Assembly: GCA_964597715.1 (NCBI GenBank)
Contig: CAZQZE010000001.1
Location: 1 to 32,696, forward strand
Direction: 5' to 3'
Length of the DNA: 32,696 nt
Origin: an uncultured Halobacteriales archaeon
Lineage (GTDB): Archaea > Halobacteriota > Halobacteria > Halobacteriales > Haloarculaceae
The notes below the pieces were generated by a model. It had not been told where the DNA came from and did not search any database. It saw nothing but the letters and a program-made list of their open reading frames with translations. Of this stretch, positions 1,253 through 26,239 are shown piece after piece (within the stretch, counting starts at the first letter, position 1; each line of letters starts with the position of its first letter). The position numbers and the translations under genes were made by a program.

Positions 1253-1257
1253 CCGAA

Positions 1258-3122: not shown

Positions 3123-3126
3123 GTAT

Positions 3127-4002: not shown

Positions 4003-4003
4003 C

Positions 4004-5305: not shown

Positions 5306-5319
5306 GATACTCGTACTGT

Positions 5320-5349: not shown

Positions 5350-5451
5350 GTCACGAACGCTGCCGCCTTTGATATAAAAGTTGAAAAATTGACAAAAATC
5401 GTTTCTTCGTCTGGCTGTTTAGTAGTTACATATTAATTATATTTTTTATCT

Positions 5452-6948: not shown

Positions 6949-6974
6949 GGCACAGCATGCAGTATCGAACCGAC

Positions 6975-6988
6975 CTATATTAATACCC
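6975..6988 (-). promoter_or_regulatory. TATA-box promoter of the amidase gene
   Basis: Minus-strand GGGTATTAATATAG 27-40 nt upstream of ATG 6948; 13/14 identical to the urtA promoter core. Confidence 0.55.
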
Positions 6989-9054: not shown

Positions 9055-9194
9055 GCTCCCGTTCATAATCGTCACTCCGGAGTATCGGTTGTCATTGGCT
9101 GGTGCGCTCGGAGAGAGGGGTACCCTAATCTGATCAATCTGTTCGTCCAGTTTATTTAATGCTAGCGTTATAGAATGGCCAATTCCGGTGCACA

Positions 9195-9488
9195 ATGTGT
9201 GTATCCCGTCTTAATAACGGTCCGGACCATCGGGAGAAAGTCGTCGCTCAAGCACGAAGGCTCACTGCAGCGAGTCACAACGAACCGGGTGTCATCAATT
9301 ATCGAGTAGCTACGGATATTGAAAACCCGAACCTTCTGTGGTTCGTTGAGCAGTGTGAGTCTGCCGACGCCGTCGAAGTCCATGCTCAGACCGAGCATTA
9401 CGAGGCGTTTGCGGACGCCGTGATGCCCGAGTTACTGGCGGAAAAGCCAGAAATCTCACAGTTAAAGATCACAGCCAACGTAGACTGA
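9195..9488 (+). CDS. ABM-domain protein (putative quinol monooxygenase family)
   Basis: ASHNEPGVINYRVATDIENPNLLWFVEQ...HAQTEHYEAF fits the EPGxxxY...DxxxPxxxxxxE...HxxxxH ABM pattern. The N-terminus looks atypical. Confidence 0.7.
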   Translation: MCVSRLNNGPDHREKVVAQARRLTAASHNEPGVINYRVATDIENPNLLWFVEQCESADAVEVHAQTEHYEAFADAVMPELLAEKPEISQLKITANVD

Positions 9489-9550
9489 ACTCGGCTCACG
9501 ACCGAGGGAAATGTGAGCAATCGTTCACCGCCAGTAAGCAGTAGTACGGG

Positions 9551-11107: not shown

Positions 11108-11231
11108 TACCAGACTCTTATTGAGATAGTTCGGCAGTCTCTGAAGTTCATACTCAGCTTTGCACCTCGGCAGCGGAGAATGAATAAAAATCCCTGTTGG
11201 ATTTTACTACGTTCTTGTGGGTGAAGGGTTG

Positions 11232-12248
11232 TTAAATTTCACATATTCCCAAGTACTCTCGACGCTGTTCCATGCGTGCTTTGCTTGAGCGTTGGTCGTA
11301 GAATTCGTCGAGGACGGATTCTGAGACGTTTGCTCGGTCACTGAGGACCTTTTCTGGGATGTCAGCATTCAACGCGTGTGTCAGTGCGCCCCGCCGGAGT
11401 GCGTGTGGCGACACGCTTGAGGGACACTCGTAGGGGTGATCGTGACCCGTCGCATCGCACTCGACGATCTCGCGATCGTGTGGACACTCATCTGTGAATA
11501 CGCAAGGTCGAGTGAATCTGTAGCAATCTCGGCGAAGGGTTGTTCTGTGAACTTGCCCCTGCGGTGAGGAGATTAGTGGGTGCCGGTCATATTCATCCTG
11601 TACTGCAGGTCGGCGATCGGTGATCCAATCCGATACGATCTGAGAGAACTCATCAGAGAGGGCGACCAACCGTTCTCCACTCTCTTGGTTTTTAATAGAG
11701 GTTCCGGTGTCCACACGATGTTTCACCTCAAGATATTCTTCCGATGCAGTGTAGTCATCCACGTCGAGTGCACGAAGCGCTCCAACTCGCATCATCGTAT
11801 GCCACAGCAATCCGAGTACGACGTGTTGAGGGGATGCGAACTCGTATTTTTGTAAGTAGTCCAACGCTCGCTTGGCGCGGTCGCTGCTTAGCATCACGTC
11901 GCGTGATTTATTCCCATCGCTCAGGGATGGTGATCTGACCTTGGTATGCAAATCCTGCTCCACCCCGTCGATTTTCTCCAACCATCGGATGAACACTCGA
12001 AGAGTATCCATCTGGGTTTTCTCCGACGCTGGAGAGAGCTCACCATCGGCTCGTCGCCACTGGCGGTACTTGTGTAATCGTCTGCCGGACAACTCGTTCA
12101 GGTTCGCAATCGCCTGCTGCTCACACCAGCGGATGAAGTGTCCCAGACGGCACTGGTGTGACCTAAGTGTTGCTTGCGTCAGTTCTGCTTCTCTGTCTGT
12201 GAGGTACAGTTCGACAGCCTCGGCCGGTTCGATCGGTTCCAGTGCCAT
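11232..12248 (-). CDS. Tyrosine recombinase/integrase, haloarchaeal SNJ2-like family
   Basis: MALEPIEPAEAVELYL N-terminus; catalytic set R (TMMRVGAL), K (SIKN), HxxR (SPHALRRG), A (DRANVS), Y (DEFYD); Cys-rich insert CVFTDECPH...C...CPSS. Start set to ATG 12248. Confidence 0.9.
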   Translation of the reverse strand: MALEPIEPAEAVELYLTDREAELTQATLRSHQCRLGHFIRWCEQQAIANLNELSGRRLHKYRQWRRADGELSPASEKTQMDTLRVFIRWLEKIDGVEQDLHTKVRSPSLSDGNKSRDVMLSSDRAKRALDYLQKYEFASPQHVVLGLLWHTMMRVGALRALDVDDYTASEEYLEVKHRVDTGTSIKNQESGERLVALSDEFSQIVSDWITDRRPAVQDEYDRHPLISSPQGQVHRTTLRRDCYRFTRPCVFTDECPHDREIVECDATGHDHPYECPSSVSPHALRRGALTHALNADIPEKVLSDRANVSESVLDEFYDQRSSKARMEQRREYLGICEI

Positions 12249-12347
12249 GGTTCGGTTGGGGGAACCGCGATGACAGCACAAGACTGACCCCTCAAAACCG
12301 GATATGACACCGATTAAAGGGCGGTTCGTTCAGGGTCTGAATGAAAG

Positions 12348-12477
12348 CCCGCCACGCCCGTTTCCGCCGAGCGACAGCGAGACGTGAAACGGCCCGGTGA
12401 TTCGACCCCTGCCAGTTGCAGCGGCCGAGCGGAGCGAGGCCGACCATCCGGCTCCGGTCCGAATCCCGCCACGCCCG
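12348..12477. repeat. Degenerate tRNA-3'-end-like hairpin element flanked by the 13-bp direct repeat CCCGCCACGCCCG (candidate att core)
   Basis: CCCGCCACGCCCG at 12348-12360 and 12465-12477. Imperfect hairpin GATTCG(12399)...CGGCC-N11-GGCCG...CGAATC(12465). GGTCCGAATCCC resembles a T-loop. Confidence 0.65.
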
Positions 12478-12682
12478 CCTCACGGTTGCTTATACTGTCG
12501 GACAGAACATTTCGCACCCCACGTCCGACGGAGAGGGCCGAAACTGCAGGATTTCGGGCCACTGCACGACACCGGTCTTCACGTACTTCTGTCCGGCAGT
12601 ATTAATTCCGCCCGAAACACGCTCGCAAGCGCGGCACACCTCACAAACACATCGGGCTTGCCCACTGCGCCCGCGAGGTAAC

Positions 12683-13417
12683 TTATTCCGGCTCACTGCC
12701 GCCGGTGGACGAACGCCCATCAGAGCCGAGGGAGAAACTCGGCGTCCATCGCTTGGCCTGGAGCCAGCCGGTCGTCGTCAGACAGACGGCGATGAGCGGC
12801 GCAGCCGTCATGCCCCCCGGCGTCAGGACGTGACTGCCGAGAAGTGCCAGGACGGTTGCGACCCCGGCGGTCGTGTAGACGCGCGTGTAAATGAGGCTCT
12901 CACCGCGGCGCCAGGCGACGGCAAAGAGCGCGCTCCCGCCGCCGAACAGCCCCACGAGCAGCCCGGTGTGGGCCCAGTAGCCGACCTTCGGGGTGAACTC
13001 GGCCAGCAGAGAGGAGGAGGCGTCCATCGTCCAGTAAACGGAGTGCACCGGTGCGGTGATCAACAGCGTGATTGCGAGGCCAACTGTGACAGCAGCGGTG
13101 CCGTAGACGGCCCGACGTGCGGGGATGTTGGGTGTGGTGCTGGCAGTACTCGCAAACAGGAACCAGCCGAGGCCGGCGAGCAGCGCGCCGACCATGCTCA
13201 GCGAGAAGAAAAACTGGTCGACGACCGGGGTCGTGCTGAGAAACTGCACGGCGAACACCCCGTTCCAGACGCCGACACCCATGACAAGGAGTATATACGC
13301 GAGTCCATTGTCCCGGTGGCGGTAGGCGAGCCCCGTGGACACGTAGATGTAGGTGGTGAGGGCGCCGAAGATCGCCCCCGTCGTGAGCACCATGTTGAGC
13401 AGGCTTACTCCTGACAT
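12683..13417 (-). CDS. Stand-alone 7TM sensor-domain membrane protein (HisKA_7TM-like), no kinase domain
   Basis: About seven hydrophobic helices; GVGVWNG, WFLFA, ITAPVHSVYW and GYWAHT fit the histidine-kinase N-terminal 7TM region. Starts 9 nt after the upstream gene's stop. Confidence 0.7.
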   Translation of the reverse strand: MSGVSLLNMVLTTGAIFGALTTYIYVSTGLAYRHRDNGLAYILLVMGVGVWNGVFAVQFLSTTPVVDQFFFSLSMVGALLAGLGWFLFASTASTTPNIPARRAVYGTAAVTVGLAITLLITAPVHSVYWTMDASSSLLAEFTPKVGYWAHTGLLVGLFGGGSALFAVAWRRGESLIYTRVYTTAGVATVLALLGSHVLTPGGMTAAPLIAVCLTTTGWLQAKRWTPSFSLGSDGRSSTGGSEPE

Positions 13418-13426
13418 CCTGCGTGG

Positions 13427-13903
13427 CTATCGGCGTGACGGTTCGTCGGTCTCCTCGGTCTCTCTGCCGGTCCCGCTGAGGAAGGACTCGAGACACGTCA
13501 GCTGGGACAACACGGCGGTGAGACACGCCCGTGCGGCTTCCAGGTCGTCGATCCGGTACTCCTTTGTCTGGACGCACTCGCGCCGGGCCAGAATCCCCTC
13601 CTCCTCGAGCGAGTGGAGGTGTGGATAGACGGTCCCGGGGCTGAACTGGACGCCGAACTGGTGTGTGAACTCCCGGATGATGTCCATCCCGTTCGCCTCC
13701 TCACAGCGAAACAGGACCGCGATGATGAGTTCGTCGAGATACTCGCTGGCGAAGGACCGTTCGAGACGAACCCTGGTAGGCGGGGTGTCGCCGCGGCTGG
13801 CTGGTGCCGAACTGTCCGACGGCGCCAGCTGTGGTGAGGGGTCATGCTGCTGTTCGGCCTGGTCGGTGGCTTCCTCGAGAAGCGCCTTCATATCGTCGTT
13901 CAT
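13427..13903 (-). CDS. gvpE: GvpE-like (PadR-type winged HTH) transcriptional activator
   Basis: EYLDELIIAVL...GMDIIREFTHQFGVQFSPGTVYPHLHSLEEEGIL...KEYRI aligns with recalled Halobacterium GvpE (EHIDEILLLLI...GKELLQDLRRLFGADLSPGTVYPHLNDLAVEGVL...KVYRL); amphipathic Leu-rich C-terminal helix. Start ATG 13903, 158 aa. Orthology versus a generic haloarchaeal PadR paralog is unproven. Confidence 0.65.
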   Translation of the reverse strand: MNDDMKALLEEATDQAEQQHDPSPQLAPSDSSAPASRGDTPPTRVRLERSFASEYLDELIIAVLFRCEEANGMDIIREFTHQFGVQFSPGTVYPHLHSLEEEGILARRECVQTKEYRIDDLEAARACLTAVLSQLTCLESFLSGTGRETEETDEPSRR

Positions 13904-14195
13904 GGTTCGTAACTGTCTGGTACTGAAACTGTCCGGCCACTCGGCTCGTCGGGGTGCCCCGGTAGTCCGGTCTGTCGCTGCTGTCGCCTCGTGGCTGCCG
14001 GTGTGACCCGCGGGACCGGACGAAAAGCCGACTGATGCCGGAGTCGGGTGGGGACTGCACTGGGGGGGACAGAGTGTGGGGGGTCGTGGGGGAGATGTCG
14101 ACCACGTCTGTGCTCCGGCATCGCTCGAACCGAGGAGGCATATCCCGTTAGGCGCTCTGGGTGAATGTTCGCGTCGGTGCCGGGACTGGGGGTGA

Positions 14196-17100
14196 CTATT
14201 CACCCCCGTTGTCGAATACCGTGTCGAAGAGGGTCCGCTCGGCGGCCCTGACGTGGCGGTAAAACGTCTGTGGCGACACACCGAGCTGGTCGGCGACATC
14301 CTCGCCGGTATTGGAACGAGGGGACTCGAAAAAGCCACTGTCGTAGGCGGTCTGTAGCACCTCCTGCTGGCGGGGCGTCAGCTTCGACCGGTACGGCTCC
14401 TCGGTCCTGGTGTCGGTGTGGTCCTGCTCGCTTTTCGAGACGAGTTCGGGGTCACCGTACCGCGACTCCAGGTCCTCGAACAGCTCCCGGACGTCGACAG
14501 TGTCGGGGACCGAGAGCCGGAACTCCGCGGCCTCGGCGTCGGCGGTGGCGTCGAGCACGCGAATCCCGCGGTCGGCGAAGTAGTCGGTGAGTGACGTGCT
14601 CGAGACCTGTAGCTCGACGATATCCTCGTCGCCCGCCTCCACGGGCGACGCCTCGGAGAGTGCGGCGACCTTCTCGGCGATTTCGGTAACCGTTGCCGGG
14701 GTGGCCCCCTCCACGCGGACGCGTTTCAGGATATCGCCGCCGGGTTGAGGGGTAACGGTCCTCAGGACCAGCGAGCAGCCCGCCTCCGAGGCAATGTAGT
14801 AGAGCGGAATACGGTCGTCGGTGAACTGGACCGTCACCTCCGTCATCGTGCCGGAGAGGACCGCGTGCTGGTGGTCCACCGTGTTCATCAGGTTCGCGAC
14901 CTTCTGGCTGAGGTCGGACAGTGCCAGCCGCGACAGCTCGTCGAAAAAGTCCTCGCGCTCCGCGTAGACGGTGAGCGTCCCATAGGAGATATCCTTGTAC
15001 CGAAGCGGGAGGCTGAGAACCGACCGAAAGCCGTGTGAAAGGGCGGCCTTGCGCCAGGCCTCGTCCTGTAGACTGTCCGCGGCGTCCGGGACGTACACCG
15101 GCTTCTCGGTGACCGCGGCCCGCGCTGCGGGCTCGAAGTTGTCGTGGAGTGTGCCCGAGACGGCGTCGAGATACCGGTCTGCCTGCGGCCCGCCGGCCCA
15201 CTCTCTGGGGACCAGCGACTGGTCCTCGGAGTCGAACCCGCTGACCCTGACCATCGCAATCCCGTCTGACGTGGACAGGTGGTCACAGACGCCACGCTCG
15301 ATATCCGTCCGGGTGTCGGCCTGCGCGACCCTCTGCCCGATCTCACGGACTGTCGCGTTGAGCTGACGTAACTCCCCGAGTTGGCGGTTCTGTGCCTCGA
15401 GTTCCGCCGTCCGTGCCTGTAGCTTGCTTCCCCGTTCGACACGGTCGAGTGCCGTCTCGGCCGTCGCTGTCAGTGTTTCCACCAGCTCCACGTCCCCGTC
15501 GGTCACCGCCGAATCCGTCTCGCCGAAGAGACAGACGGCGTGGTCGTTGAGCGGGACGACAAACGCCCCCGTGACCGGGAGTGACGGTGTGGTGCCCGTC
15601 GCGCTGACCGTCTTCGGCTCCTCGTCGAGAAACGTCTCCCCGACGATACTGTCGTCCCCGAGAGCCACCGGGCCGAGGGCCGACCTGTCGACGGTCTCAC
15701 TGCTGACCGCAGCAGGGCACAACACCCCCTCGGAGGGGTCGAACAGGTAGACAACGACAACGGGCATCGAGAGGATGTCGGTCGCGGCCTCGACAATACT
15801 CCCGGCGACCGCCGTCTTCGACTCGGCGGCGAGAAGGTCCCGTGCGGAGCCGTGAAGCGCCGTCAGCGTCCGTTCGTACTGCTCGCGGTCGGTCACGTCA
15901 CGGATGACGAGCAGGTGTCGGCCCGGCAGGATATCGGGCGTCGCCGCGAGTTCGGCGATACAGTCGGCGCCCGTCGCGGTACGCAGCGGGACAGTTGCCC
16001 GTTCGGGGCGTGTCCCACGGGTGTCCTGCCACGGCCACGTGCGCTCCTGTGCGTCCGGGACGAAGTCGACGAACGACCGGCCCAGGAGTTCCTCGCGTGG
16101 CGTCTCGAATAGCTCGCAGGCCGCCGGGTTCGCGTCGACGTGTGTGCCGGTGTCGTCGGTGACGACCATCGCGTCGAAGGCTCTCTCGAACAGCGAGCGA
16201 AACCGCTGCTCGCTCGCGCGCATCGCCTGTTCGGCACGGTACCCCTCGACGGCGTTCGAGACCCGGTGGGCCAGCTTCTCGTAGTGGTCGGTGTCGGACT
16301 GCTTTCTGAAGTAGTCGGTGACACCGGCCGAGACTGCCTCGGCGGCGGTCTCCTCGTCACTGTTGCCCGTGAGCATCAGAAACGGCAGGTCGGGGTGGCG
16401 CTCGCGCACCAACCCGAGAAAGTCCAGCCCGTCGACCCCGGGCATTGCGTAGTCCGAAACGACACAGTCGACGGGACTGTCCTCGAGACGGGCCAGCGCC
16501 TCCTGGGGGTCCGTCTCGGCGACGACTGTGTCGACCCCGTCGTTCAGTTCGAGGTACTCGGCGACCATGTCGGCGTAGCCGGGTTCGTCGTCGACTAGTA
16601 GCACGCGAACCGGGCGGTCGCCTGCGGTCGGGCGCAGGGACGACGCCGAACCGCCCTGTGCCTGCTGGAGGGGGGGTTGCGCCCCCGGACTACCGGCCGC
16701 CCGGTGCCCGGTCGACCCGTTGCCCCGGTCGGGCGGCTCGTAGCGGGTATTGTGAGTGACGGTCCCGTCGTCGAGCAGAAGGGGGTGATTGTGGACAACG
16801 TCGGAGATGGCCTCCGGCGGGAATCTGTTGCGGTTGTACTGACAGAGCGCAACACAGTCCTCGCCGGCCAGGGCGGGGTTGAGAAGCGCCTCGTACTCCG
16901 CAAGGGCGTCGAGACCGGTCCCGCTGTCGAGTGCCCACGTCATCTCGACGGCGGTCCGGAGTCTCTCGAACCCCTGACCCCGGGCTCGCTCGCGTGCTTC
17001 CGTCCAGAACTCGACCGTCGCTGCCCGGTCGAACTCACCCGTCCTGAGCTGCACCTCCTCCGGCGTTCGAACCGCGAGCGCACCGGAGCCCCTGGCCGCT

Positions 17101-17336
17101 GCGACATCGACACCGCCGTCCCTGAGGGCGACGCGCACGGCCTCGGCGGTGTTGTCGTGGACCACGTACAGACACCGCTCGTTCTGTTGTAGCCCCTGGC
17201 GGAGAAAGGAGGCGACGGTCTCGAGTTGCTCGTCGCTGTCCTCGTAGACAGAGGCGAGGTGGGCGGTACGCCCGCCCAGTCCCGCCCCGCCGGTCGGCCG
17301 GTCGTGCCCGAAGGAGACGCCGCTGGAGTCACTCAT
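14196..17336 (-). CDS. Multi-sensor Bat-type transcriptional activator: MEDS-REC-PAS-GAF-GAF-BAT-HTH_10
   Basis: MEDS (HLASVYE...FLRQGLQQNERCLYV...EMTWAL...ALCQYNRNRF...HP); REC (LLVDDE, VVSDYAMP, LTG, DYFRK); PAS (DANPAACELF); two GAF-like regions; HTH_10 (LTPRQQEVLQTAYDSGFFESPR...HVRAAE). Start ATG 17336, 1046 aa. Confidence 0.85.
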   Translation of the reverse strand: MSDSSGVSFGHDRPTGGAGLGGRTAHLASVYEDSDEQLETVASFLRQGLQQNERCLYVVHDNTAEAVRVALRDGGVDVAAARGSGALAVRTPEEVQLRTGEFDRAATVEFWTEARERARGQGFERLRTAVEMTWALDSGTGLDALAEYEALLNPALAGEDCVALCQYNRNRFPPEAISDVVHNHPLLLDDGTVTHNTRYEPPDRGNGSTGHRAAGSPGAQPPLQQAQGGSASSLRPTAGDRPVRVLLVDDEPGYADMVAEYLELNDGVDTVVAETDPQEALARLEDSPVDCVVSDYAMPGVDGLDFLGLVRERHPDLPFLMLTGNSDEETAAEAVSAGVTDYFRKQSDTDHYEKLAHRVSNAVEGYRAEQAMRASEQRFRSLFERAFDAMVVTDDTGTHVDANPAACELFETPREELLGRSFVDFVPDAQERTWPWQDTRGTRPERATVPLRTATGADCIAELAATPDILPGRHLLVIRDVTDREQYERTLTALHGSARDLLAAESKTAVAGSIVEAATDILSMPVVVVYLFDPSEGVLCPAAVSSETVDRSALGPVALGDDSIVGETFLDEEPKTVSATGTTPSLPVTGAFVVPLNDHAVCLFGETDSAVTDGDVELVETLTATAETALDRVERGSKLQARTAELEAQNRQLGELRQLNATVREIGQRVAQADTRTDIERGVCDHLSTSDGIAMVRVSGFDSEDQSLVPREWAGGPQADRYLDAVSGTLHDNFEPAARAAVTEKPVYVPDAADSLQDEAWRKAALSHGFRSVLSLPLRYKDISYGTLTVYAEREDFFDELSRLALSDLSQKVANLMNTVDHQHAVLSGTMTEVTVQFTDDRIPLYYIASEAGCSLVLRTVTPQPGGDILKRVRVEGATPATVTEIAEKVAALSEASPVEAGDEDIVELQVSSTSLTDYFADRGIRVLDATADAEAAEFRLSVPDTVDVRELFEDLESRYGDPELVSKSEQDHTDTRTEEPYRSKLTPRQQEVLQTAYDSGFFESPRSNTGEDVADQLGVSPQTFYRHVRAAERTLFDTVFDNGGE

Positions 17337-17862
17337 GCCTGGCGACCACACCCGTCGTGGCAGGTGGCTCGTCTCCCACGCGGTCCCGCGCGAGCGCCGG
17401 GGCATCCGGTGGCGGGGCCACCGACAGCCCGACGACCGCGACAGGGGACGACCTGTCACCCGGGGGCGGACACACGCTCGGGGCGCTGGTACCGGTCACG
17501 ACGGGTGCCGGGCGTTGGTCTGCCAGGGGGACGCAGCTGCCGTTCCCGGGTGGAGCGTGTCTGTTCACACAGGGAGAGTCGGCTTACGGCGATAAAGTAG
17601 CTGTGGCGCATTTCGAGGGTTGAAAACGAGGGCCCGGCGACGTCCGGGGGACCGAGCCGGAGGCCGCCAGACAGGACGGCTGAACAGCCCGCCCACGTGG
17701 ACGATAGACTGTGTGTGCTACCGGTGGCGGTGGGGACCGGCCGACGGAGGCCCTGCGCGCCGCCGATGCGTCACCGACCGGGGCTGCCATACTGCCGGCT
17801 GTGCGTCTGTTGAGAAGCTCGCCATCCCGGGGTAGTACCTTGACGACGGGACAGCGGCGGTA

Positions 17863-18210
17863 TCAGAGCGCTTTGCCCTGCAGTTCGCTCCGCTTGAACC
17901 GCTGCTGGAGCGAGTACTCCTCGACCGTCCCGGTCCTCGAGAGGTGAAGCTCGTACCGGCCGATGATGTCCTGTGTATCGGGGACCGCACTGCGTTCGAC
18001 GACCTCAAACAGCGCACGCCAGCCGCCGCCCTCGGCGCGTTCGACCGACGTGATCCCGTCGAAGGGCTGACCGAGGAGCGACTCGGCGACCTCGGACACC
18101 CGCTCGCGGACGTCGAGGACAGTTAGCTCCTCGTCCTCGGGCGAACCGGCTGTCGCGTCGTCGTCGGGTTCGTCCTGTTGCTCCGAGTCGAGCGACTGCT
18201 GGTCGGTCAT
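17863..18210 (-). CDS. gvpO: Gas vesicle protein GvpO
   Basis: LLGQPFDGI...WRALFEVVERSAVPDTQDIIGRYEL...RFKR is characteristic of GvpO; overlaps gvpN. Confidence 0.93.
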   Translation of the reverse strand: MTDQQSLDSEQQDEPDDDATAGSPEDEELTVLDVRERVSEVAESLLGQPFDGITSVERAEGGGWRALFEVVERSAVPDTQDIIGRYELHLSRTGTVEEYSLQQRFKRSELQGKAL

Positions 18211-19247
18211 ACGCCGTCACCGTCCATGTCGTCGATGGCTGTCGCCACACACTCCTGTGCGGCGTCGAGTTCCGCTCGGCCGGAGACCTTCGACGAGAGA
18301 ACGTCGGTCATCACCTCGAGGAAGAAGGCGTCGTCGCGCTCCTCCTCGGGGACGGTGAGTAACCCCTCGGCGGCGATGATGGCCCCGCGGGTGCCGAGAT
18401 TCCAGTCGAACTCGTCGCGGACGGTGCGCAGCACGTCGACACACCCCCGGACGAGCGGGTCGGGTGCCTCCGGGACGTGGGAGTGGACGATCTCCACCTC
18501 CGTCTCGAAGTTGTAGTAGTCCATGTAGACGCCGACGAGACGGTCGAGCAGCGCGTCCTGTGGCTCGTGAACCCCCGCGTACTCGACGTCGTTCGAGGTG
18601 AGGATGGCGCGAAACTCCGGGTGGACCTCGACGAGCCTGTCGTCGCCACGCTGGCCAGGAAGTTCGAGAATTCCTTCCTCGAAAACTGAGAGAAGTGCGT
18701 TGTTCGCGGCGGGTTTCGTCCGCGAGAACTCGTTGTAGACGAGGGTTGCGCCCTCCCGAACGGCGACAGTGAGCGGATTGTCAACCCAGCGGTCCCGGAC
18801 GATGTCAGTGCTTTTGGTGACGTTGTGGATGTACTTGTCGCGCACAGACACCCGCTCCTGTTCGCTGAAGTCGCCGACGAGGTCCTTCGTGTCGAGGTCG
18901 GCGTCACCGTTGATCCAGACGACTGGGCGGTTCCGCTCGGACGCGACCCGCATCGCGAGCGCCGTCTTCCCACAGCCGGTCGGTCCAACGAGGTGAACCG
19001 GACGGTCGACCGAGACCCAGCGCTCGACGCGCCGGGTGACCGACTCCGTCTCGGGGGAGTCGACAAACGAGTCGAGGAGGTCACTGACGTCACGCAGCCC
19101 TGCGGACTGCCCGGCGGCGGTGCCCGTCTGTGCCGACTGGCGCTGCGTCGAGGAGCTTCCGCCCCCGTTCTGTCGACGCTTTTCGCTTCGGCTGTCGCGG
19201 ATCTGCGAGCCACGCACCTTCCGCTCGTGACCGTCTCGCTGCGCCAT
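18207..19247 (-). CDS. gvpN: Gas vesicle AAA+ ATPase GvpN
   Basis: ERKVRG N-terminus, PVHLVGPTGCGKT, WVDNPLT, LVYNEFSRTKP, EYAGVHEPQDALLDRL. Confidence 0.96.
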   Translation of the reverse strand: MAQRDGHERKVRGSQIRDSRSEKRRQNGGGSSSTQRQSAQTGTAAGQSAGLRDVSDLLDSFVDSPETESVTRRVERWVSVDRPVHLVGPTGCGKTALAMRVASERNRPVVWINGDADLDTKDLVGDFSEQERVSVRDKYIHNVTKSTDIVRDRWVDNPLTVAVREGATLVYNEFSRTKPAANNALLSVFEEGILELPGQRGDDRLVEVHPEFRAILTSNDVEYAGVHEPQDALLDRLVGVYMDYYNFETEVEIVHSHVPEAPDPLVRGCVDVLRTVRDEFDWNLGTRGAIIAAEGLLTVPEEERDDAFFLEVMTDVLSSKVSGRAELDAAQECVATAIDDMDGDGV

Positions 19248-20191
19248 TACTCCTCACCCGGGAACAGCGCCACGTCGGGCCCGTGTTCTTCCTTGTACTC
19301 CTCCATGGAGAGTTCGTGGGTCTGGAGGTGTGACTCGGTGATGGCCTGGTAGTACTCCCCGCAGGTCAGACACTTGACCATGTCCTCGGGCGCGCCCCCG
19401 CTGTCCTGTGACTCGGCGTCCTCGCCCGTCAGCTGGTCGTTGATCGTCGGCAACTCACTGTCACCGACGGGGATATCGACGCCGTCGTCGGCCCGCTCGG
19501 TCTCGTCGGCGTCGGCGTCGGCCGGGTCGTGGCCGTCGGTCGTGGACGACTCGGACACGGACTCGTCGTCGGTGACCGACCCGGCTGTGGTGGCCGTGGC
19601 GGTGTGTGCCGGCTCCTCCTCGTACCCGTAGAACTCGACGACAGCCCGGGAGAACTCGTCACTCGCCTGCTCGTAGGCCGCCCGGACCTCCTCGACCGTC
19701 TCGAGAAACGCCTCGACATCCTGCTGTTTCTCCTGTACGTCCTGGTCGAACGCCCTGGCGAACTCCTCGAAGTCCCCCAGCGCCTCGGCGAAGGCGGCGT
19801 GTGTCGCGGCGACCTCCTCCCGGAACTCGTCGACCCGCTGTTGTTTCGCGCCAACGTCGTCCTCGAAGTCCTCGGTGTAGGCCTCGAACTCGACGAGCAT
19901 GGTCTCGAAGGCGTCGCGGGTCGCCTCGATCTCCTCGCGAAAGGCGGTCGCCGCGTCCTGCTTTGTGGCGACATCGGACTCGAACTCCGCGGCGTACGCG
20001 TCAAAGGCAGCCAGTGCCTGTTCGAATGTCGACTCCATGTCCGACATCTCCTCGCGGAACGTCACCGCGAGCTGTTGTTTGTCCCTGACGTCGCCCCAGA
20101 ACTGCTCGGTGTACTGGTTAACGTCTTCTCGCGCGAGCGCGAACTCGGCGCGCATCTCGGCGAATCCGTCGTGTTTCTCTTTTACTGTCAT
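19247..20191 (-). CDS. gvpC: Gas vesicle structural protein GvpC
   Basis: MTVKEK start, acidic 39-aa helical repeats, C-terminal CLTCGEYYQAITESHLQTH...YKEEHGPDV motif of haloarchaeal GvpC. Confidence 0.95.
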   Translation of the reverse strand: MTVKEKHDGFAEMRAEFALAREDVNQYTEQFWGDVRDKQQLAVTFREEMSDMESTFEQALAAFDAYAAEFESDVATKQDAATAFREEIEATRDAFETMLVEFEAYTEDFEDDVGAKQQRVDEFREEVAATHAAFAEALGDFEEFARAFDQDVQEKQQDVEAFLETVEEVRAAYEQASDEFSRAVVEFYGYEEEPAHTATATTAGSVTDDESVSESSTTDGHDPADADADETERADDGVDIPVGDSELPTINDQLTGEDAESQDSGGAPEDMVKCLTCGEYYQAITESHLQTHELSMEEYKEEHGPDVALFPGEE

Positions 20192-20217
20192 GTTCCTGGT
20201 TGTATGGTGTACGTTCG

Positions 20218-20252
20218 AAAACGGGACTGCGTGACGGGAGCGCGCCGGCGCG
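20218..20252 (-). terminator. Short GC hairpin plus T4 run after gvpA (possible partial terminator or stabilising element)
   Basis: Perfect palindrome CGCGCCGGCGCG (20241-20252) immediately after the gvpA stop; TTTT on the minus strand at 20218-20221. Confidence 0.35.
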
Positions 20253-20495
20253 TTAGGGCGTCGGTGCGTCCGCCGGTGCTTCGGCCGCGGTGGCGGTCAT
20301 TTCGGCTTGCTCGATTTTTGCGATCTCCTCGGCGTAGTGGAGGAACGTGTCGACCGAGGACGCGACGACGCGGGCCTCGACGGTCAGGATCTCGATCCCG
20401 ACGAGCGAGACACGGGCGAAGACGTCGACGACAATGCCCTTGTCGAGCACGCGGTCCAATACTTCTGCCAGACTGGATGAGTCGGGTTGTGCCAT
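20253..20495 (-). CDS. gvpA: Major gas vesicle structural protein GvpA
   Basis: [65 protein letters not shown]; start ATG 20495, 80 aa. Confidence 0.98.
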
Positions 20496-20677
20496 TGGTG
20501 TTCGTGGACAGATGTCCATCTCTTCAGAGACACGGGGGATATGAATAGGTATGTACGATTTCAGACAGGATTACGGGTCGCGTGATGGCCCGCGTTACGC
20601 CCGACGTAACGGCCGACAAAACGACACACGTAACCGGAGATACTGTTTTGCCAGTGGCTCGTCTGTGTTCGAACGCG
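20496..20677. promoter_or_regulatory. Divergent PA/PD promoter region with GvpE-UAS-like boxes
   Basis: Minus strand: CGTAATCC-n4-TGAAATCG-TACATACC-TATTCATA, then a leader hairpin TGGAC-ATCT-GTCCA before the gvpA ATG. Plus strand: CGTAACGG-n4-CAAAACGA-n4-CGTAACCG before a weak TTTTG box. Confidence 0.7.
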
Positions 20678-22177
20678 GTGTCACACCATTCAGAACGTGA
20701 ACACGTAAACGCGGGTCAACGCGGCGTCGAGAAGTTCCCGGCAGAGCTCCTGCGGTTTTTCACCCAGGGGCGGGGTCAGGTGCTCCTCGTTCGCGGAGAC
20801 CCTGGTGCCGGGAAGACGCTCTTTGCCGTCCAGGCGCTCGACATTCTCCGGCAGTACGGCGGGGACGTTCTCTACGTGACCACGCGCGTGGACACTGACA
20901 CCATCTACCGCAACTACCTGAAGGAGACAACCCGTCTCACCCCGTCGAACGTGCTCGACATCTCGCAGGACCCGTTCGACGCCGACATCACACCCGCCGA
21001 GGAGATCGGCGCCGACAGGTTCGACCCCGACACCTTCCTCGAGTGGCTGCGGGCGGTCAGCGACGTCTCGGACCCCTTTACCGCCGTGTTCGACAGCTGG
21101 GAACTCGTCGAACAACACCTGCTCTCGGAGGCCCACCAGGACGATGCGCCCGAACCCGAGGAGCTGGTGACCCGGATGGCCAAACTCGCCCGTCGCCACG
21201 GGTTCCGGATCATCCTGATCACCGAGGAGGCGGACCAGACGAAGCTTGACTACGTCGTGGACGGTGTCGTCGAACTCCGTGTCGGTCACAGCACCGGGGG
21301 TCGCCCCGAGCGGGAACTCCTGCTCGAGAAACTCCGGGGTGTCCGGATCGCCAACCGGACGCGGCCGTTCACACTCTCCGAGGAGACCTTTCGGGTGTTC
21401 ACGCCCGTCGACCTGCCGGTCTCCCGGGGCGTCGTCGGCGACCCGGAGTGGACGCCCGTCGGCAACTCGAAGTCGAAGTTCTCGACCGGTATCGAGGACC
21501 TCGACACGATGCTCGACGGCGGCTACAACCGCGGCAGTGTCGTCCACTTCGAACTCGGTCCCGACCTCTCCCGGGACGCCTGGAGTCTGCCCTGTCTCGC
21601 CACCGCACAGAATTTCCTCTCTCACGGCCTGGGTGTTGCGGTCGTCCCGCTCCCGGAGAGCAGTCCCGGGCTGGTGCGGCGGAACCTGGAGCCGGGGCTC
21701 GCGGACTCGGAGTTCGAGGCCCGCTGTGACGTCTTCGAGACCTACGACCACAGGAGCATGACAGCCATGTCCGGTGTCGACGACGACCCGACAGACGCCG
21801 ACGGGGACGGCCTACGGGACGACGCCGGCGGGTTCGAGTACGACGACTACATCCGTCGTCTCGAGTCCCTCCGCGGGGAGAGTGACGGCCCGCTGTTGCA
21901 CACTATCAGCATGGACGCGGCAGGTGACGCGCTCAGCGACATCATGAGTGACCACGCCACCTACGTCGCGCTGCACAACGACCTCTCGGTCCTCGTGACG
22001 AAACCGGGCAGCAGAGAGCGAACCCGTGCCGACCGGGTGGCGGACGTCCACCTTCGCCTCGAACGGCGGGGCGAAACCGTCTTTATGTACGGCAAGAACC
22101 CGGTCACCCCGTTTCTCGGGTTCGACACGAGCATGACCGACGGGACCCTCGACATCGCACTCCAGGAGATGGTCTGA
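20678..22177 (+). CDS. gvpD: Gas vesicle regulatory ATPase GvpD (KaiC-like repressor)
   Basis: P-loop GDPGAGKT, FDSWE, LEKLRGVRI, NSKSKFSTGI, GYNRGSVVH, GPDLSRDAWS, VALHNDL, ends EMV. GTG 20678 preferred because the ORF-track start 20582 lies inside the operator array. Confidence 0.95.
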   Translation: MSHHSEREHVNAGQRGVEKFPAELLRFFTQGRGQVLLVRGDPGAGKTLFAVQALDILRQYGGDVLYVTTRVDTDTIYRNYLKETTRLTPSNVLDISQDPFDADITPAEEIGADRFDPDTFLEWLRAVSDVSDPFTAVFDSWELVEQHLLSEAHQDDAPEPEELVTRMAKLARRHGFRIILITEEADQTKLDYVVDGVVELRVGHSTGGRPERELLLEKLRGVRIANRTRPFTLSEETFRVFTPVDLPVSRGVVGDPEWTPVGNSKSKFSTGIEDLDTMLDGGYNRGSVVHFELGPDLSRDAWSLPCLATAQNFLSHGLGVAVVPLPESSPGLVRRNLEPGLADSEFEARCDVFETYDHRSMTAMSGVDDDPTDADGDGLRDDAGGFEYDDYIRRLESLRGESDGPLLHTISMDAAGDALSDIMSDHATYVALHNDLSVLVTKPGSRERTRADRVADVHLRLERRGETVFMYGKNPVTPFLGFDTSMTDGTLDIALQEMV

Positions 22178-22178
22178 G

Positions 22179-22256
22179 GTGGCCGTACCGACCTACCCAC
22201 GCGGCGCCGCGCCGACATCAACCGGCAGTTCCACCACTCACAACCCAGAACAATGA
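22179..22256 (+). other. 25-codon mini-ORF (MAVPTYPRGAAPTSTGSSTTHNPEQ) bridging gvpD and gvpF at the usual gvpE position
   Basis: GTG 1 nt after the gvpD stop, GGAGA upstream, TGA overlapping the gvpF ATG (ATGA). Confidence 0.35.
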
Positions 22257-22894
22257 GCGACAACAATTCCAACCTGTACGTGTACGGCATCATCGAACAG
22301 ACCGACATCGAGATGGAGGTCGATGGCGTCTTCGGCGCGTCGAGGCTCGTGACGGTCGACTACCGGTCCCACTCGGCGCTCACCTCCACGGTCGATACCA
22401 CCGAGCCGGAGCGGTCCGACGAGGCCGTCGCAACGCACGACGACGTGCTCCGGTCGGTCGTCGAGCGCGACGACGTCCAGACCGTCGTGCCGATGAGCTT
22501 TGGCATGGCGTTCAAAAACGCCCGGACGCTGAAGGGGGTGATGCGGGGCGCCCAGCGGGCGTTCCGGAAGGCGCTCAACGACGTCGAGGGCTGTGTCGAA
22601 CTCGGGGTCAAGATGGTCGACCCCGCCGACGGGGCGACCGACGCCGACGAACTCCGCGGGCTACTCGAGGACGAACTCGACCCGCTGAGTGCCGGCCAGA
22701 CAGAGGACGACCTCTTCAGTGACCGGCTCATCGCAAACCGGTCGTATCTCGTCGAACAGGACCAGCGCGACGACTTCGACGAGGCCGTCGACCGGCTCGA
22801 AGCAGCAAACGAGGACGTGCTCGTCAAGTACACCGGTCCCTGGGCGCCGTACAACTTTGTCGACATCCGGGTCGGGGCGGAGGCGAGTAACTGA
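22253..22894 (+). CDS. gvpF: Gas vesicle protein GvpF
   Basis: NLYVYGIIEQ, VVPMSFGMAFKNARTLKGVMRGA, YTGPWAPYNFVDI. Confidence 0.96.
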   Translation: MSDNNSNLYVYGIIEQTDIEMEVDGVFGASRLVTVDYRSHSALTSTVDTTEPERSDEAVATHDDVLRSVVERDDVQTVVPMSFGMAFKNARTLKGVMRGAQRAFRKALNDVEGCVELGVKMVDPADGATDADELRGLLEDELDPLSAGQTEDDLFSDRLIANRSYLVEQDQRDDFDEAVDRLEAANEDVLVKYTGPWAPYNFVDIRVGAEASN

Positions 22895-23145
22895 TGATCC
22901 TGGTCGACGACCTGTTGCTCAAGCCGTTCGTCTCGCTGCTCGACATCCTCCACGCGATGGTGCTGGACGAACTCCACGATATGGGGGCCATCCGTGACGA
23001 CCTCAAGGAAAACCAGTTGCTGTACGAACTCGGGGAACGGCCGGAGTCGGAGTACGAGCGGAAGAAAGGGCAGTTAGAGGCCGAACTCCAGGTTGCCGAG
23101 GAGGTCCACGAGAAACTCATCAGCGGGAACATCGAGGTGCAGTGA
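22894..23145 (+). CDS. gvpG: Gas vesicle protein GvpG
   Basis: DDLLLKPFVSLLDILH...IRDDLKENQLLYELGER. Confidence 0.95.
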   Translation: MILVDDLLLKPFVSLLDILHAMVLDELHDMGAIRDDLKENQLLYELGERPESEYERKKGQLEAELQVAEEVHEKLISGNIEVQ

Positions 23146-23681
23146 CTATGCCCGACGACACCGACAGAGACGACTCGGACGAGGACGAGGAGTTCCCCGG
23201 GTCGATTCCGCTCGGGAACGTCTTCGAGACGCTCTCGACACTGCTCGAACAGCTCGACGACGCCGACCTGGACACCGGTGAGCGACGGTCCGACACCGTC
23301 CGGCGCGGGGACGCGACGTTCGACTACGACATCAATATCGGCACGATAGCCCCCGACGGCGAGGGTCGCAGCGACCGCCGGAGCCCGGACTGGGACATCA
23401 GAGGGGAGTCCGAGGACCACGAGTACCGGGTCAGGGTCAACGACGCCGACGGCGAACTCGTCGTCGTTGCCGACCTCCCGGCGGTTTCGGCCGACGAGGT
23501 CAGCGTCGAGACGACCGACGACGACGAGGCACTCGAGATCCGTGTCGACGGTGCGGTTCTCAGGTCGGTCCCGCTCGACTGGGGCGGGGCGAGTGTCACC
23601 GAGGTCGCATTCACCAACCAGGTACTCGAGGTACACGTCGAACCACAGGGCGGCGAGACCGACGGAGAGACGAATACATGA
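23142..23681 (+). CDS. gvpH: Gas vesicle protein GvpH (Hsp20-like fold)
   Basis: FDYDINIG, ELVVVADLPAVS, FTNQVLEVH; lies between G and I. The start could be ATG 23148. Confidence 0.9.
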   Translation: MTMPDDTDRDDSDEDEEFPGSIPLGNVFETLSTLLEQLDDADLDTGERRSDTVRRGDATFDYDINIGTIAPDGEGRSDRRSPDWDIRGESEDHEYRVRVNDADGELVVVADLPAVSADEVSVETTDDDEALEIRVDGAVLRSVPLDWGGASVTEVAFTNQVLEVHVEPQGGETDGETNT

Positions 23682-24082
23682 CGAACAACAGAACCCAACG
23701 ACGAAAACAGACACAGCAGCGGAACAAGGTCGTCGCCAGAGCGCTCCGTAACCGCGACAGGACGAGACAGAACCTCCTCGCCCAGGGCCGGAAACTGGCG
23801 CGTCGACGCGCCGAGAACGTCGACCGCGACACCGACCAGTCCGAGGACAGGGGGTCGACGGGCGCGAGCGCACACTCGACGGTCCCGTCGACCGACTCGA
23901 ACGAGGAGGTTGCGGTGCGACACTCACACTCGACCGTCCCGGCACAGCCGAGAGGGTCGACCGTCCCGGCGGCGGCCCGTCTCTACGGGCTCAAGTTGTA
24001 CGAACAGATTCGGGCCGACCGCGACGAGGACGGGGACGGGCCGGCCACGGGCGAGGCCGACGGCGAGGGTGAGGAGCAATGA
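23678..24082 (+). CDS. gvpI: Gas vesicle protein GvpI
   Basis: Basic N-terminus (NRDRTRQNLLAQGRKLARRR), repeated HSTVP motifs, RLYG. Confidence 0.9.
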   Translation: MTNNRTQRRKQTQQRNKVVARALRNRDRTRQNLLAQGRKLARRRAENVDRDTDQSEDRGSTGASAHSTVPSTDSNEEVAVRHSHSTVPAQPRGSTVPAAARLYGLKLYEQIRADRDEDGDGPATGEADGEGEEQ

Positions 24083-24369
24083 GCGGACCGAAACCCACCC
24101 GCACACAGGGTGACCTCGCACAGATGCTCGAGACGCTGCTGGACAAGGGTGTGGTGATCAACGCGGATATCGCCATCACGATCGGGGACACGGAACTGCT
24201 CGGTGTGAAACTCCGTGCGGCGATTGCCTCGTTCGAAACTGCCGCCGAGTACGGTCTCGAGTTCCCCCTCGGTACCGACCTGGAGTCGGTCGCCGAGGCG
24301 AGCGAGAGCGGCCCCGAGGAGGCGACAGCAGCGGACGCCACCGGCGTCACCGGCGGAGGCCAGGGGTGA
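24079..24369 (+). CDS. gvpJ: Gas vesicle protein GvpJ
   Basis: PKPTRTQGDLAQMLETLLDKGVVINADI...RAAIASFETAAEYGLEFP. Confidence 0.96.
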   Translation: MSGPKPTRTQGDLAQMLETLLDKGVVINADIAITIGDTELLGVKLRAAIASFETAAEYGLEFPLGTDLESVAEASESGPEEATAADATGVTGGGQG

Positions 24370-24375
24370 CCGGCC

Positions 24376-24681
24376 GTGCAACTCACAATCGACGAGGACG
24401 ACGGGCTACAGAGTGGGCTGACATCGCTGGTCGTGACCGTCGTCGAACTGCTCGTCGAGGCGCTCGAGCGGGAGGCTGTCCGTCGTATGGAGAGTGGAAC
24501 GCTCTCCGAGGCGGAGGTCGAGCGTCTCGGACAGCAGCTGTGTCGCTTGGACGCGGAACTCGAGCGGCTGAAGACAGACCAGGACATCGAGGAGGAGGTC
24601 GACTCCTTCCGTGGGCAACTCGACGATGTCGTCGACGATGCGCTCCGGAACGTCGTGAACGGGGAGGGCCAACATGAGTGA
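24376..24681 (+). CDS. gvpK: Gas vesicle protein GvpK
   Basis: [39 protein letters not shown]; GTG start. Confidence 0.95.
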
Positions 24682-25528
24682 AACCGCAGACCCCGACGGG
24701 AGTACAGTCGGAGAGACCGCCGACACCGGCCGGTATCTCTACTGTCTCGTGGACCTCGACGAGGGCGGCGAGACGGGCACCGTACCGGTCGATATCGACG
24801 GTATCGAGGGTGAGTCGGTCTTTCTCATCACAGCCCAGCACGCCACTGTCGGTGCACTCGTCCACGAGCGTGGGGCCCCCTTCGATTCGACCGACCTCAC
24901 GAAACTCCGGGACTGGCTGCTCGCCCACCAGCAGGTCGTCGACGCCGCCGGTGACCGGTTTGGAACACCCCTGCCGGTCCAGTTCGATACGGTGCTCGAC
25001 GGCGACGACGACGCGGTTGCCGCGTGGCTCGACCGGAACGGCGAGCAGGTCGTGGATGCGTTCGACGACCTGGGCGGCTGCTGGGAGTACCGTGTGACGC
25101 TGTCCTGGGACCCGACGGGCTTCGAGGCCGAACAGCGGACGACCGACGCCGAACTCTCGAGCATCGACCGGCGGCTCGACCAGTCCGGCACCGGCACCCA
25201 GTTTCTGCTCGAGAAGAAGTACGACCAGCGACTGCGCGAGCTGGTCAGACAGCGACAGACGGCGCTAAAGGAGATGCTCGTCGACCGGCTGCGCGCGGAC
25301 GCCATGGAGGTCACCGAGCGGCCGGTGCAGTCGGATGCCGCCGCCTCCCTGGGGGTCGAACTGGACTCCGACGCTATCGGGCAGGTTGCCCTGTTGGCAC
25401 CGTCGACTGCGGAGTCACCCATCGGCGCGACGCTCGACGAGATCGCCGACATCCCCGGTGTCGATGTCCGGTTCACCGGCCCCTGGCCGCCGTACACGTT
25501 TGCCCCGGAGATCACCGATGACGGGTAG
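24674..25528 (+). CDS. gvpL: Gas vesicle protein GvpL
   Basis: [41 protein letters not shown]. Confidence 0.96.
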
Positions 25529-25608
25529 CGCTCGCGGCCACGCCCGCGACGGGACCCGACCGAGTACCGACGGACCGAACAACCGACCCGAAACCCCAGC
25601 CACACCAC

Positions 25609-25806
25609 ATGCAACCGACCCGAACTGAGGAGCACGCGGTCGTCGAACTGCTCGACGTCCTGCTCGAGAAGGGCGTGGTCATCCAGGCGGACGTCGTCGT
25701 GACGGTCGCCGACATCCCGCTCGTCGGGATCAGTCTCCAGGCCGCCATCGCGGGGATGGCGAAGATGTCCGAGTACGGGGGCCAGGCGTGGGCGGAACGG
25801 GAGTAG
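25609..25806 (+). CDS. gvpM: Gas vesicle protein GvpM (short, 65 aa)
   Basis: MQPT..EHAVVELLDVLL..G.VIQADVVVTVADIPLVGISL.AAIAGM..M.EYG; last gene of the operon. Confidence 0.92.
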   Translation: MQPTRTEEHAVVELLDVLLEKGVVIQADVVVTVADIPLVGISLQAAIAGMAKMSEYGGQAWAERE

Positions 25807-26239
25807 CCCCCCGGACAGACGCACGGCCGGTGTGAGCGCAGCCCGCCGGGGGTCGTCTGCGCCGGGTCCGATAGGCCCGGGTCGTTGTCTTTGACCCCCG
25901 AGTTTCACCTGTGAAAAACTCGCCGTACATGGGTGCGGTTATCGTGGCCACACATACCAACCGGCCAGTGTAGCCGGCGAGGAGACCGACGACGACGCGG
26001 GCACCGTGGGTGCCGGGTTCTCGGGCTGTCCCAACTCCACCGACTGCGCGACGAACCGGGTCTGTCGGTAAGGGGTATCGAGAGGGCCGGTGGGGTGTTG
26101 GACGAGCAAAGCGCCAGCCACGAACCCCCAGTGGATACCGATGACCGACCACCGCGACAGCCGGGCCGCGGCTGGACTGTCCCACGGGGCCCGTGAGGTG
26201 AGCGAAAGTTTGTTGCTGGCGGTCCTCGTGGGCGCGAGC

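Follow-up and report, generated by a model that had tools for sequence, protein, structure and literature searches.

A gas vesicle cluster with gvpD but no gvpE in an uncultured haloarchaeon, with a GvpE-like PadR protein and a Bat-type multisensor as its candidate regulators

Haloarchaeal gas vesicle (vac) clusters carry both gvpD and gvpE or neither of them, as far as the available parts of two reviews go (PMC4390858, PMC9501494). The DNA analysed here, a stretch of 32,696 nucleotides from an uncultured Halobacteriales archaeon (the window; contig C1 of source genome G000, 2.58 Mb in 425 contigs and 79% complete), holds a third layout, found mostly in uncultured saltern lineages, in which gvpD is present without gvpE and the cluster is accompanied by a gene for a multisensor of the Bat (bacterio-opsin activator) type followed by one for a GvpE-like regulator of the PadR family. 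This is a recurrent and apparently undescribed variant of gas vesicle regulation: the first-pass annotation of the window knew of no such arrangement, and a literature search found no description of gvpD-positive, gvpE-negative clusters or of a Bat–PadR cassette at vac regions, supplementary tables, which could show the layout, lying outside that search. The activator of the cluster would, with a chance put just above even, be the separately transcribed GvpE-like PadR protein, itself switched on by the Bat-type multisensor. That the PadR protein activates the gvpA and gvpD promoters (PA and PD) seems probable from the DNA and protein sequences; the full two-step cascade from the Bat-type protein through PadR to PA and PD may be right or wrong about equally.

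A scan with Pfam and NCBIfam found 13 of the 14 genes of the canonical set (gvpACNO plus gvpDEFGHIJKLM), gvpE being the one missing; gvpI and gvpK were named from their positions and from matches to annotated clusters. As first annotated, gvpF follows gvpD after a gap of 75 bp, and the minus strand beyond gvpO encodes a multisensor, a 158-aa regulator and a seven-transmembrane (7TM) protein, all three now assigned by Pfam (Table 1). The PadR gene lies 4 kb past gvpO on the strand opposite to gvpD. A canonical gvpE elsewhere in the genome, a possibility that had been raised at the outset, was not found in the 79%-complete G000 assembly, in which the best match (68 bits) is a generic paralog, and a canonical GvpE query did not exceed 77 bits in any of ten gvpE-less genomes, nine of which are incomplete or have no stated completeness. 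Besides the PadR gene at the cluster, G000 holds three further members of the family, at 59%, 41% and 40% identity.

The linkage of the Bat and PadR genes to gvpE-less clusters extends well beyond the window. A scan with GvpD yielded 18 genome loci and nine metagenome loci, among which GvpD is 68–97% identical to that of the window in eight genome and five metagenome loci and 63% identical in a sixth, partial metagenome locus. The loci of this clade are assigned to Salinirussus, Halovenus, Haloglomus, Haloferacaceae, J07HX64 (described without this cluster in the accessible part of PMC3630111), A07HB70 and Halobacteriales metagenome-assembled genomes, and in all those with a close GvpD, gvpF directly follows gvpD. 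Where the flank is long enough (the window, L049, L059, L061, L063, L064, L065, L078 and L080), the PadR gene is on the gvp contig in nine of nine loci, with the Bat gene directly upstream of it in eight. Locus L049 has gvpACNO only, gvpD not having been found in that 66%-complete genome; in L065 the pair has been relocated as a unit beyond gvpM; and L078 has lost the adjacent Bat gene and retains the PadR gene and an array of half-sites, the region before PadR looking, by eye, like the Bat promoters in L061 and L080. The activator gene is present in L051 and L079, in which the contig ends before PadR, and the L060 genome has the pair intact on a separate contig, its gvp contig stopping after gvpO; L062, L076 and L082 are uninformative for linkage.

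Four hundred other genomes of the order, sampled evenly, point the same way. Sixteen have gvpD, in the order gvpD–gvpE–gvpF in 14 (one with a 1.2-kb gap before gvpE) and with gvpF after gvpD in two, and both of the latter (G106 and G114) carry a Bat-then-PadR cassette, whose PadR protein is the sole family member found in each genome. In G106 (98% complete) a PAS-BAT-HTH_10 gene lies just past gvpM and is followed by PadR, while in G114 (88%) the genes beyond gvpO are one without assignment, an AAA ATPase, a 1271-aa Bat-type gene, a second gene without assignment and PadR. A second PadR-family member was found near none of 17 distinct canonical gvpDEF clusters in the retrieved flanks (three of them short), nor was any family member found near gvp genes in four gvpF/L-carrying genomes from one other family. 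Of the proposed trio, it is the Bat and PadR pair that is linked to gvp genes in gvpE-less relatives (eight of nine clade loci, G106 and G114), the 7TM gene accompanying it in one congener locus besides the window. Two details of the distant cassettes may be recorded. In G106 the Bat-type gene (L047 16181–18686) and gvpM share a strand, with 11 nt between the gvpM stop and the Bat start, so PD may transcribe the cassette there, and positive feedback could still operate. In G114 (L048 4074–7760, L103 4350–5015) the ATPase has a double AAA domain, and the two genes without a Pfam match that lie between gvpO, the Bat gene and PadR have C-termini that look alike by eye.

The Bat and PadR genes could also be carried as passengers by a block spreading together with the cluster, the half-site array being a relic or read by a generic PadR paralog, and a patchy distribution (2 of 41 relatives by GvpD, and not found in the 99%-complete congener G001), an integrase and a miniature inverted-repeat transposable element (MITE) adjoining the cluster, and generic paralogs that score closer to GvpE would all fit such a history. 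Yet the pair stayed with the cluster after the L065 relocation while flanking genes differ, it recurs in G106 and G114, the PadR gene is the sole family member found at E≤1e-8 in the L063 and L060 genomes, and the array is constant in length in 10 of 11 loci; mere hitchhiking is thus very improbable.

The promoters themselves argue that a GvpE-like factor is still at work. According to the part of PMC2241852 available, the GvpE site consists of two 8-nt halves 4 nt apart, with the consensus YGAAAYGA, and must abut the TFB-recognition element (BRE). In the window an upstream activating sequence (UAS) of this 8-n4-8 form abuts, by sequence, the BREs of both PA and PD, the PA half-sites matching the consensus at five and six of eight positions and the distal PD half-site at seven. 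Between the two BREs, seven such units stand in register and ungapped in 10 of 11 loci, the last being shifted by one base, and the units average 1.43 bits versus 0.99 for the spacers. Canonical clusters have three (L004), four (L034) or five (L035) units, so that expansion of the array happens there too, and with seven units instead of three to five the two UASs need not overlap. The pattern YGWAAY-N6-YGWAAY has one match in the window, against the PA BRE (0.07 expected), three in the genome, two of which are the gvpA promoters, and matches in 29 of 94 loci, at the gvpA–gvpD spacer in canonical and gvpE-less clusters alike; in G106 the distal PA half-site is perfect. The retained half-sites are the strongest sign that a GvpE-like factor would act here still. 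Several observations weigh against so firm a view of the sites: the pattern was loosened at one position only after these promoters had been inspected, 6 of 100 shuffles match it, a reversed-pattern control has seven genome matches versus three, L038 and L065 are unmatched, and the autocorrelation is weak, at 0.12–0.16 for lags 11–13.

Two side observations concern gvpA. G000 has a second copy (C177 4461–4846, L101; 386 bp at 99.7% identity) that retains PA and five of the seven units, beside a transporter-like gene and a carotenoid-oxygenase-like open reading frame (ORF; both labels by eye), and at least two congeners have the copy, for example G004 on C68 (L052). An in-frame ATG eight codons ahead of the gvpA start (20519–20496), present in most promoters of the clade, may mark the transcript start or an N-terminal extension of gvpA.

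The same array could serve the opposite purpose, the PadR protein repressing through it, or the Bat-type protein could act directly on PA and PD. Many PadR-family proteins are repressors, the PadR protein of the window is without the basic wing of GvpE, seven sites would also suit cooperative occlusion, and GvpD of the clade is altered in its first basic region, reading GGRPER, with fewer arginines, where canonical proteins mostly have RGRTRR. On the other side, the half-sites abut each BRE and leave it uncovered, which is the geometry required for activation by GvpE (PMC2241852, in the part available), the gvpA–gvpD spacer has no match to the candidate Bat site GTGA-N4-TCAC, and L078 has no adjacent Bat gene. 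This alternative is accordingly considered quite unlikely, and activation of PA and PD by the PadR protein remains preferred.

How close that protein stands to GvpE is less settled than first proposed. Its sequence has 44 matches, 43 at 52–88% identity plus one weak outlier, and a profile of its group (clade X) scores 205–255 bits in G000 versus at best 103.5 bits in the 400 other genomes of the order, in which clade X was not found by this profile search. The sequence FSPGTVYPHL, which had been read as the GvpE core, is part of the PadR winged helix-turn-helix (wHTH) core SPGT.YP.L (PF03551), present in clade X and throughout the family: SPG.YP.L is near-invariant in 97 other members, the unlinked C53 paralog described below has it too, and the motif was rejected as diagnostic of GvpE. 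Trees were built on a 108-column core alignment, a quick one of 180 rows and two careful ones of 55 and 60 hand-picked rows from among these, the second dropping P0156 and P0084 and adding seven. X forms a clade of its own on a long stem (98/92 and 100/99 in the careful trees), and GvpE and X, each at 98–100, are separate in all three. In the careful trees X, GvpE and the G106 PadR group, each time with one stray row, are set off from the remaining paralogs (90/92 and 96/91), the G106 PadR lying beside GvpE (98/86), and constraining X, GvpE and the G106 group to stay together raised the log-likelihood by 5.66, the grouping not being rejected (approximately unbiased p-value 0.594). X and GvpE are about 35% identical over the matched core and have in common A70, H95 and L135, which are uncommon in other paralogs; the G114 PadR has H95 and lacks A70 and L135. 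The C-terminus of X has a hydrophobic heptad (128/135/142), with L135 as in GvpE where most others have His, and without the later Cys of GvpE, for which the part of PMC4390858 available describes a leucine-zipper-like C-terminal helix.

Against this affinity stand the quick tree, which did not unite X with GvpE, and the bootstrap, in which the exact grouping of X, GvpE and G106 occurs in 12% of trees; the alignment has 108 columns and the X stem is long. Canonical GvpE scores the window PadR at 48 bits and two generic paralogs at 68 and 59 bits. The wing of X reads QTKEY, as in generic paralogs, versus KRKVY in GvpE; the basic KRK(V/I)Y wing, to which a functional role has been ascribed, is conserved across the GvpE rows. 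A sequence search of the PDB returned generic PadR/RosR-type structures only. Taken together, the trees and shared residues suggest that the PadR protein probably belongs to a lineage related to GvpE, placed near it with moderate, unstable support. Since it lies outside the GvpE clade and not between gvpD and gvpF, it is not GvpE by membership, and the notion of a relocated gvpE, already strained by the lower score than two generic paralogs, is not supported; of the relationship that a phylogeny with true GvpE proteins and PadR paralogs had been proposed to settle, the careful trees favour nearness to GvpE, and the quick tree and the pairwise scores do not. It tells against the scheme favoured here that three congeners carry a second clade-X PadR distant from gvp genes (C53 9107–9562 in G000; L054; L055), with a differing upstream region that contains a different palindrome. 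This copy might serve as another input to the gvp promoters.

The protein encoded upstream of PadR is Bat-type by its architecture, PAS and GAF domains above the cut-off being followed by C-terminal BAT (PF15915, 6.6e-27) and HTH_10 (PF04967, 1.7e-18). Its REC domain looks phosphorylatable, an acidic pair, the acceptor Asp and the Thr and Lys being present by eye; no LOV-type motif was seen by eye in its PAS domain. The MEDS domain had been taken for a small-molecule sensor, which is just one reading, because PMC5847659, in the part available, classes MEDS as an inactivated KaiC-like domain. That MEDS and REC define the input is not supported: the L063 activator is without both, those of G106 and G114 are without MEDS, and L078 has no activator gene at all, so that MEDS was rejected as a required input.

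Candidate sites for this protein lie between its gene and PadR. In nine of nine aligned loci the activator stop is followed by a palindrome of the type GTGA-N4-TCAC; about 31–36 nt on comes a second, degenerate one (GA..A.T invariant), then an invariant TAA and, about 26 nt further, an invariant GATG. L126 agrees, also in the second palindrome. The conserved pair lies where a candidate Bat-type activation site would be looked for, upstream of the PadR BRE and TATA. The recognition helix of the activator, S-P/A-Q-T-F/V-Y-R-H, is conserved together with the motif, and in L065 the palindrome is kept though the stop sits elsewhere inside it, which argues for constraint at the DNA level; no such pair was evident by eye downstream of five other Bat genes of G000. 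An ORF of about 33–85 codons begins at the GATG and ends over the PadR start (nine of nine loci, by eye). Upstream ORFs (uORFs) precede both regulators (17568–17329 and 14121–13900); their length and sequence vary, the stop overlapping the next start is kept, and it seems from this that the frame rather than the peptide is conserved. The overlap of the first with the activator gene recurs, by eye, in L051/L079, L061 and L080. A short repeat lies between gvpO and the Bat gene (about 17780–17870; dozens of copies at 75–90% in congeners G002–G004), which suggests that the Bat gene has a promoter of its own.

The link from Bat to PadR is nevertheless weaker than the promoter link, since GTGA-N4-TCAC alone is not rare (two matches versus 0.99 expected) and the palindrome pair is absent by eye in G106 and G114. 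The PadR protein might activate PA and PD through the array from a promoter outside Bat control, the palindromes being a terminator-like hairpin or the site of another factor and the Bat gene having another target. The persistence of PadR and array without a Bat gene in L078 would suit this, as would the G-run and C-run flanks of the first palindrome, which can pair in the window so that a hairpin role could apply, and a GvpE-type half-site beside the PadR TATA in L065, which hints at self-regulation there. Pairing of the flanks does not explain why the palindrome core is kept where they cannot pair (L063, L059), with constant spacing to the second site, the TATA and the start, and together with the recognition helix, nor does a separate target explain the Bat-then-PadR order in three distant lineages. 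Control of PadR by something other than Bat is therefore judged unlikely, and Bat-dependent PadR expression is retained.

The 7TM protein, named in the first-pass annotation as the third member of the sensor module, is no part of the conserved core. Its gene lies 9 nt behind PadR in the window and the congener locus L049 only, and no 7TM gene follows PadR in seven of seven informative non-congener loci (L059, L061, L063, L065, L078, L080, L126). The protein has 244 aa and PF16927 only, without the HisKA and HATPase domains that follow the 7TM domain in a HisKA_7TM histidine kinase, and a truncated kinase was rejected in view of 139 stand-alone relatives in a search that covered forms of similar length. 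Stand-alone 7TM genes occur in 9 of 200 other genomes; in four complete genomes with 7TM and gvpF/L they lie on other contigs or over 1.6 Mb apart, and five gave no gvpF/L match, four of these being incomplete. The gene is a lineage-specific passenger, likely co-transcribed with PadR here. A REC-PAS-PAS-GAF-HisKA-HATPase hybrid kinase is encoded 3.2 kb past gvpM (29052–31298) and is a possible phosphodonor in congeners only; it was rejected as a conserved partner, as a REC match after gvpM occurs in congener loci and L076 only.

At gvpD, the start is likely the GTG at 20678 rather than 20582, a position kept in most relatives. The protein is of the KaiC family by Pfam, with intact Walker motifs, and three complex predictions with the PadR protein (0.44, 0.28 and 0.00 against a mark of 0.32) were used neither for nor against an interaction. 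A 25-codon mini-ORF fills the place of gvpE. An ATG or GTG stands one base after the gvpD stop in 13 of 13 clade loci printed (two of which duplicate others), as gvpE starts 2–4 bases past it in four annotated clusters, and in 12 of 13 the short ORF terminates, by eye, over the start of gvpF, an end that chance alone would give in one or two frames of three. The mini-ORF could be a gvpE relic, or a slot later filled by gvpE. In the canonical-type cluster L043 (12783–13988) about 1.2 kb separate gvpD from gvpE, so that gvpE could be uncoupled from gvpD in that cluster as well. The p-vac region has its gvpF promoter (PF) inside gvpE (PMC4390858, PMC9501494, in the parts available); as the gap here has no room for it, gvpF–M are likely PD-dependent, unless a promoter lies within gvpD.

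Joined together, these elements would form the following chain. The Bat-type protein would integrate phospho-REC, PAS, GAF and MEDS inputs, bind the two palindromes just past its own stop and activate the weak PadR promoter, PadR being translated through coupling to the leaderless uORF. The PadR protein would then bind the seven-unit array and activate both PA, for gvpACNO and the second gvpA on C177, and PD, which would drive gvpD, the mini-ORF and gvpF–M as one coupled unit, while GvpD would act as a brake by reducing the amount of the PadR protein, as it reduces that of GvpE. The negative loop would stay, and sensor control would replace the self-activation of gvpE. The earlier proposal of an activator under a sensory cascade is in this respect supported, as the pair tracks gvpE-less gvpD clusters and candidate Bat sites precede the PadR promoter, though not in its MEDS/REC and 7TM inputs; its uncoupling from feedback is true at most of the positive loop, because PD retains its half-sites. 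It counts against the chain that what is observed is gene content, linkage and conserved DNA elements, every regulatory step being inferred from these, that the nine linked loci amount to about four to five sub-lineages, and that only congeners and one near-identical metagenome contig were found to have a conserved kinase gene by the cluster.

It had also been claimed that the activator moved out of gvpD–M, a direction that is not established and may be the reverse. GvpD of the three gvpE-less lineages is 39–43% identical among themselves and 39–47% to canonical proteins, while that of the divergent canonical cluster L046 is 51–54% identical to five canonical proteins and 44% to L045. Such identities would fit deep, separate gvpE-less branches and an ancestral cassette, with either direction possible. 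A broader scenario, tentative and on present evidence doubtful, is that gvpD-type clusters were ancestrally controlled by a cassette of Bat sensor and GvpE-like protein, which three deep lineages have retained while freely exchanging its sensor domains. The gvpDE operon would then be derived, such an activator having entered the gvpD operon, shed its sensor and acquired self-activation. Feedback by GvpD, itself an ATPase of the KaiC family, may in addition run through the KaiC-like MEDS domain where one is present.

The surroundings of the cassette are of mixed character. Window positions 1–12280, with a GC content of 50–62% versus 68% genome-wide, adjoin it and encode three amidases, a branched-chain-type ABC transporter and a tyrosine integrase (11232–12248). 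A MITE-like element of 111 bp with 16-nt terminal inverted repeats lies at 12492–12602, and more than 30 near-identical full or partial copies occur in G000, many at contig ends. An Rfam scan of 11000–26500 gave no match.

Table 1. Features of the gvpE-less gas vesicle cluster and its regulatory cassette in the window
Feature	Position	Strand	Basis or remark
Stand-alone HisKA_7TM protein, 244 aa, kinase domains none	12683..13417	-	PF16927
GvpE-like PadR-family wHTH regulator (clade X), 158 aa, FSPGTVYPHL	13427..13903	-	PF03551
Variable upstream ORF, 73 codons	13900..14121	-	Stop overlaps PadR start; putatively leaderless and translationally coupled
Weak TATA-like element, putative PadR promoter	14145..14151	-	TAA invariant 9/9
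Second, degenerate GNGA-N4-TCAC palindrome	14161..14172	-	Next to BRE position; candidate Bat-type site
First GTGA-N4-TCAC palindrome	14192..14203	-	Overlaps activator stop codon; candidate Bat-type site
Bat-type activator, MEDS-REC-PAS-GAF-GAF-BAT-HTH_10, 1046 aa	14196..17336	-	Pfam
Upstream ORF, 79 codons, GTG start	17329..17568	-	Overlaps activator start by 8 nt; 24 nt after TATA-like box
gvpA, gvpC, gvpN, gvpO	17863..20495	-	Pfam/NCBIfam
PA TATA and BRE	20540..20555	-	BRE identical to that of canonical cluster L004
Array of seven 8-nt GvpE-type half-sites, 12-nt period	20556..20635	.	Between the two BREs
PD BRE and TATA-like element, abutting last half-site	20637..20652	+	Position predicted from conservation
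gvpD (PF07088+PF20440)	20678..22177	+	Walker A and B-like motifs intact
25-codon mini-ORF at gvpE position	22179..22256	+	Starts 1 nt past gvpD stop, ends over gvpF start
gvpF, G, H, I, J, K, L, M	22253..25806	+	Pfam/NCBIfam, annotated-cluster matches

The layout offers candidates for the sensor, the sites and the second-tier activator and points to the target promoters; if the proposed chain is true, it would be a direct sensor-to-buoyancy cascade, would supply a candidate operator for a BAT-HTH_10 protein, would represent an archaeal activator chain of two tiers and would hint at the origin of gvpE. Such a route may be compared with the available part of Pfeifer's 2015 review (PMC4390858), according to which the GvpE/GvpD pair is often not the way by which environmental signals reach the vac region.

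With p-vac and c-vac of Halobacterium salinarum and mc-vac of Haloferax mediterranei, the cluster has in common the divergent gvpACNO and gvpD–M units, a P-loop GvpD, 8-n4-8 half-sites abutting both BREs and a regulator of the same haloarchaeal PadR-fold family. It differs from them in having a 25-codon mini-ORF, not gvpE, between gvpD and gvpF, a regulator outside the GvpE clade with its own promoter behind a Bat gene, and seven half-site units instead of three to five, and from p-vac in a gap too small for the PF promoter. The vac regions without gvpD and gvpE (Haloquadratum walsbyi, Halorubrum vacuolatum, Natrialba magadii and others; PMC4390858, PMC9501494, in the parts available) likewise have no gvpE and a regulation that is unexplained there, but they lack gvpD also, as PMC5496347 states for Haloquadratum in the part available, whereas the source cluster has it. 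Compared with Bat, whose domains are described in PMC2253796 (available in part), and with haloarchaeal BAT-HTH_10 regulators (PF15915, PF04967), the activator is alike in PAS, GAF, BAT and HTH_10 and in an N-terminal REC; unlike Bat, it has an extra MEDS, an intact-looking REC and, by eye, no LOV-type motif in PAS, and its proposed target is a second transcription factor. The 7TM domain is the same as in the input of HisKA_7TM kinases (PF16927), but here it stands alone without HisKA and HATPase, as in a widespread group that is not tied to gvp genes.

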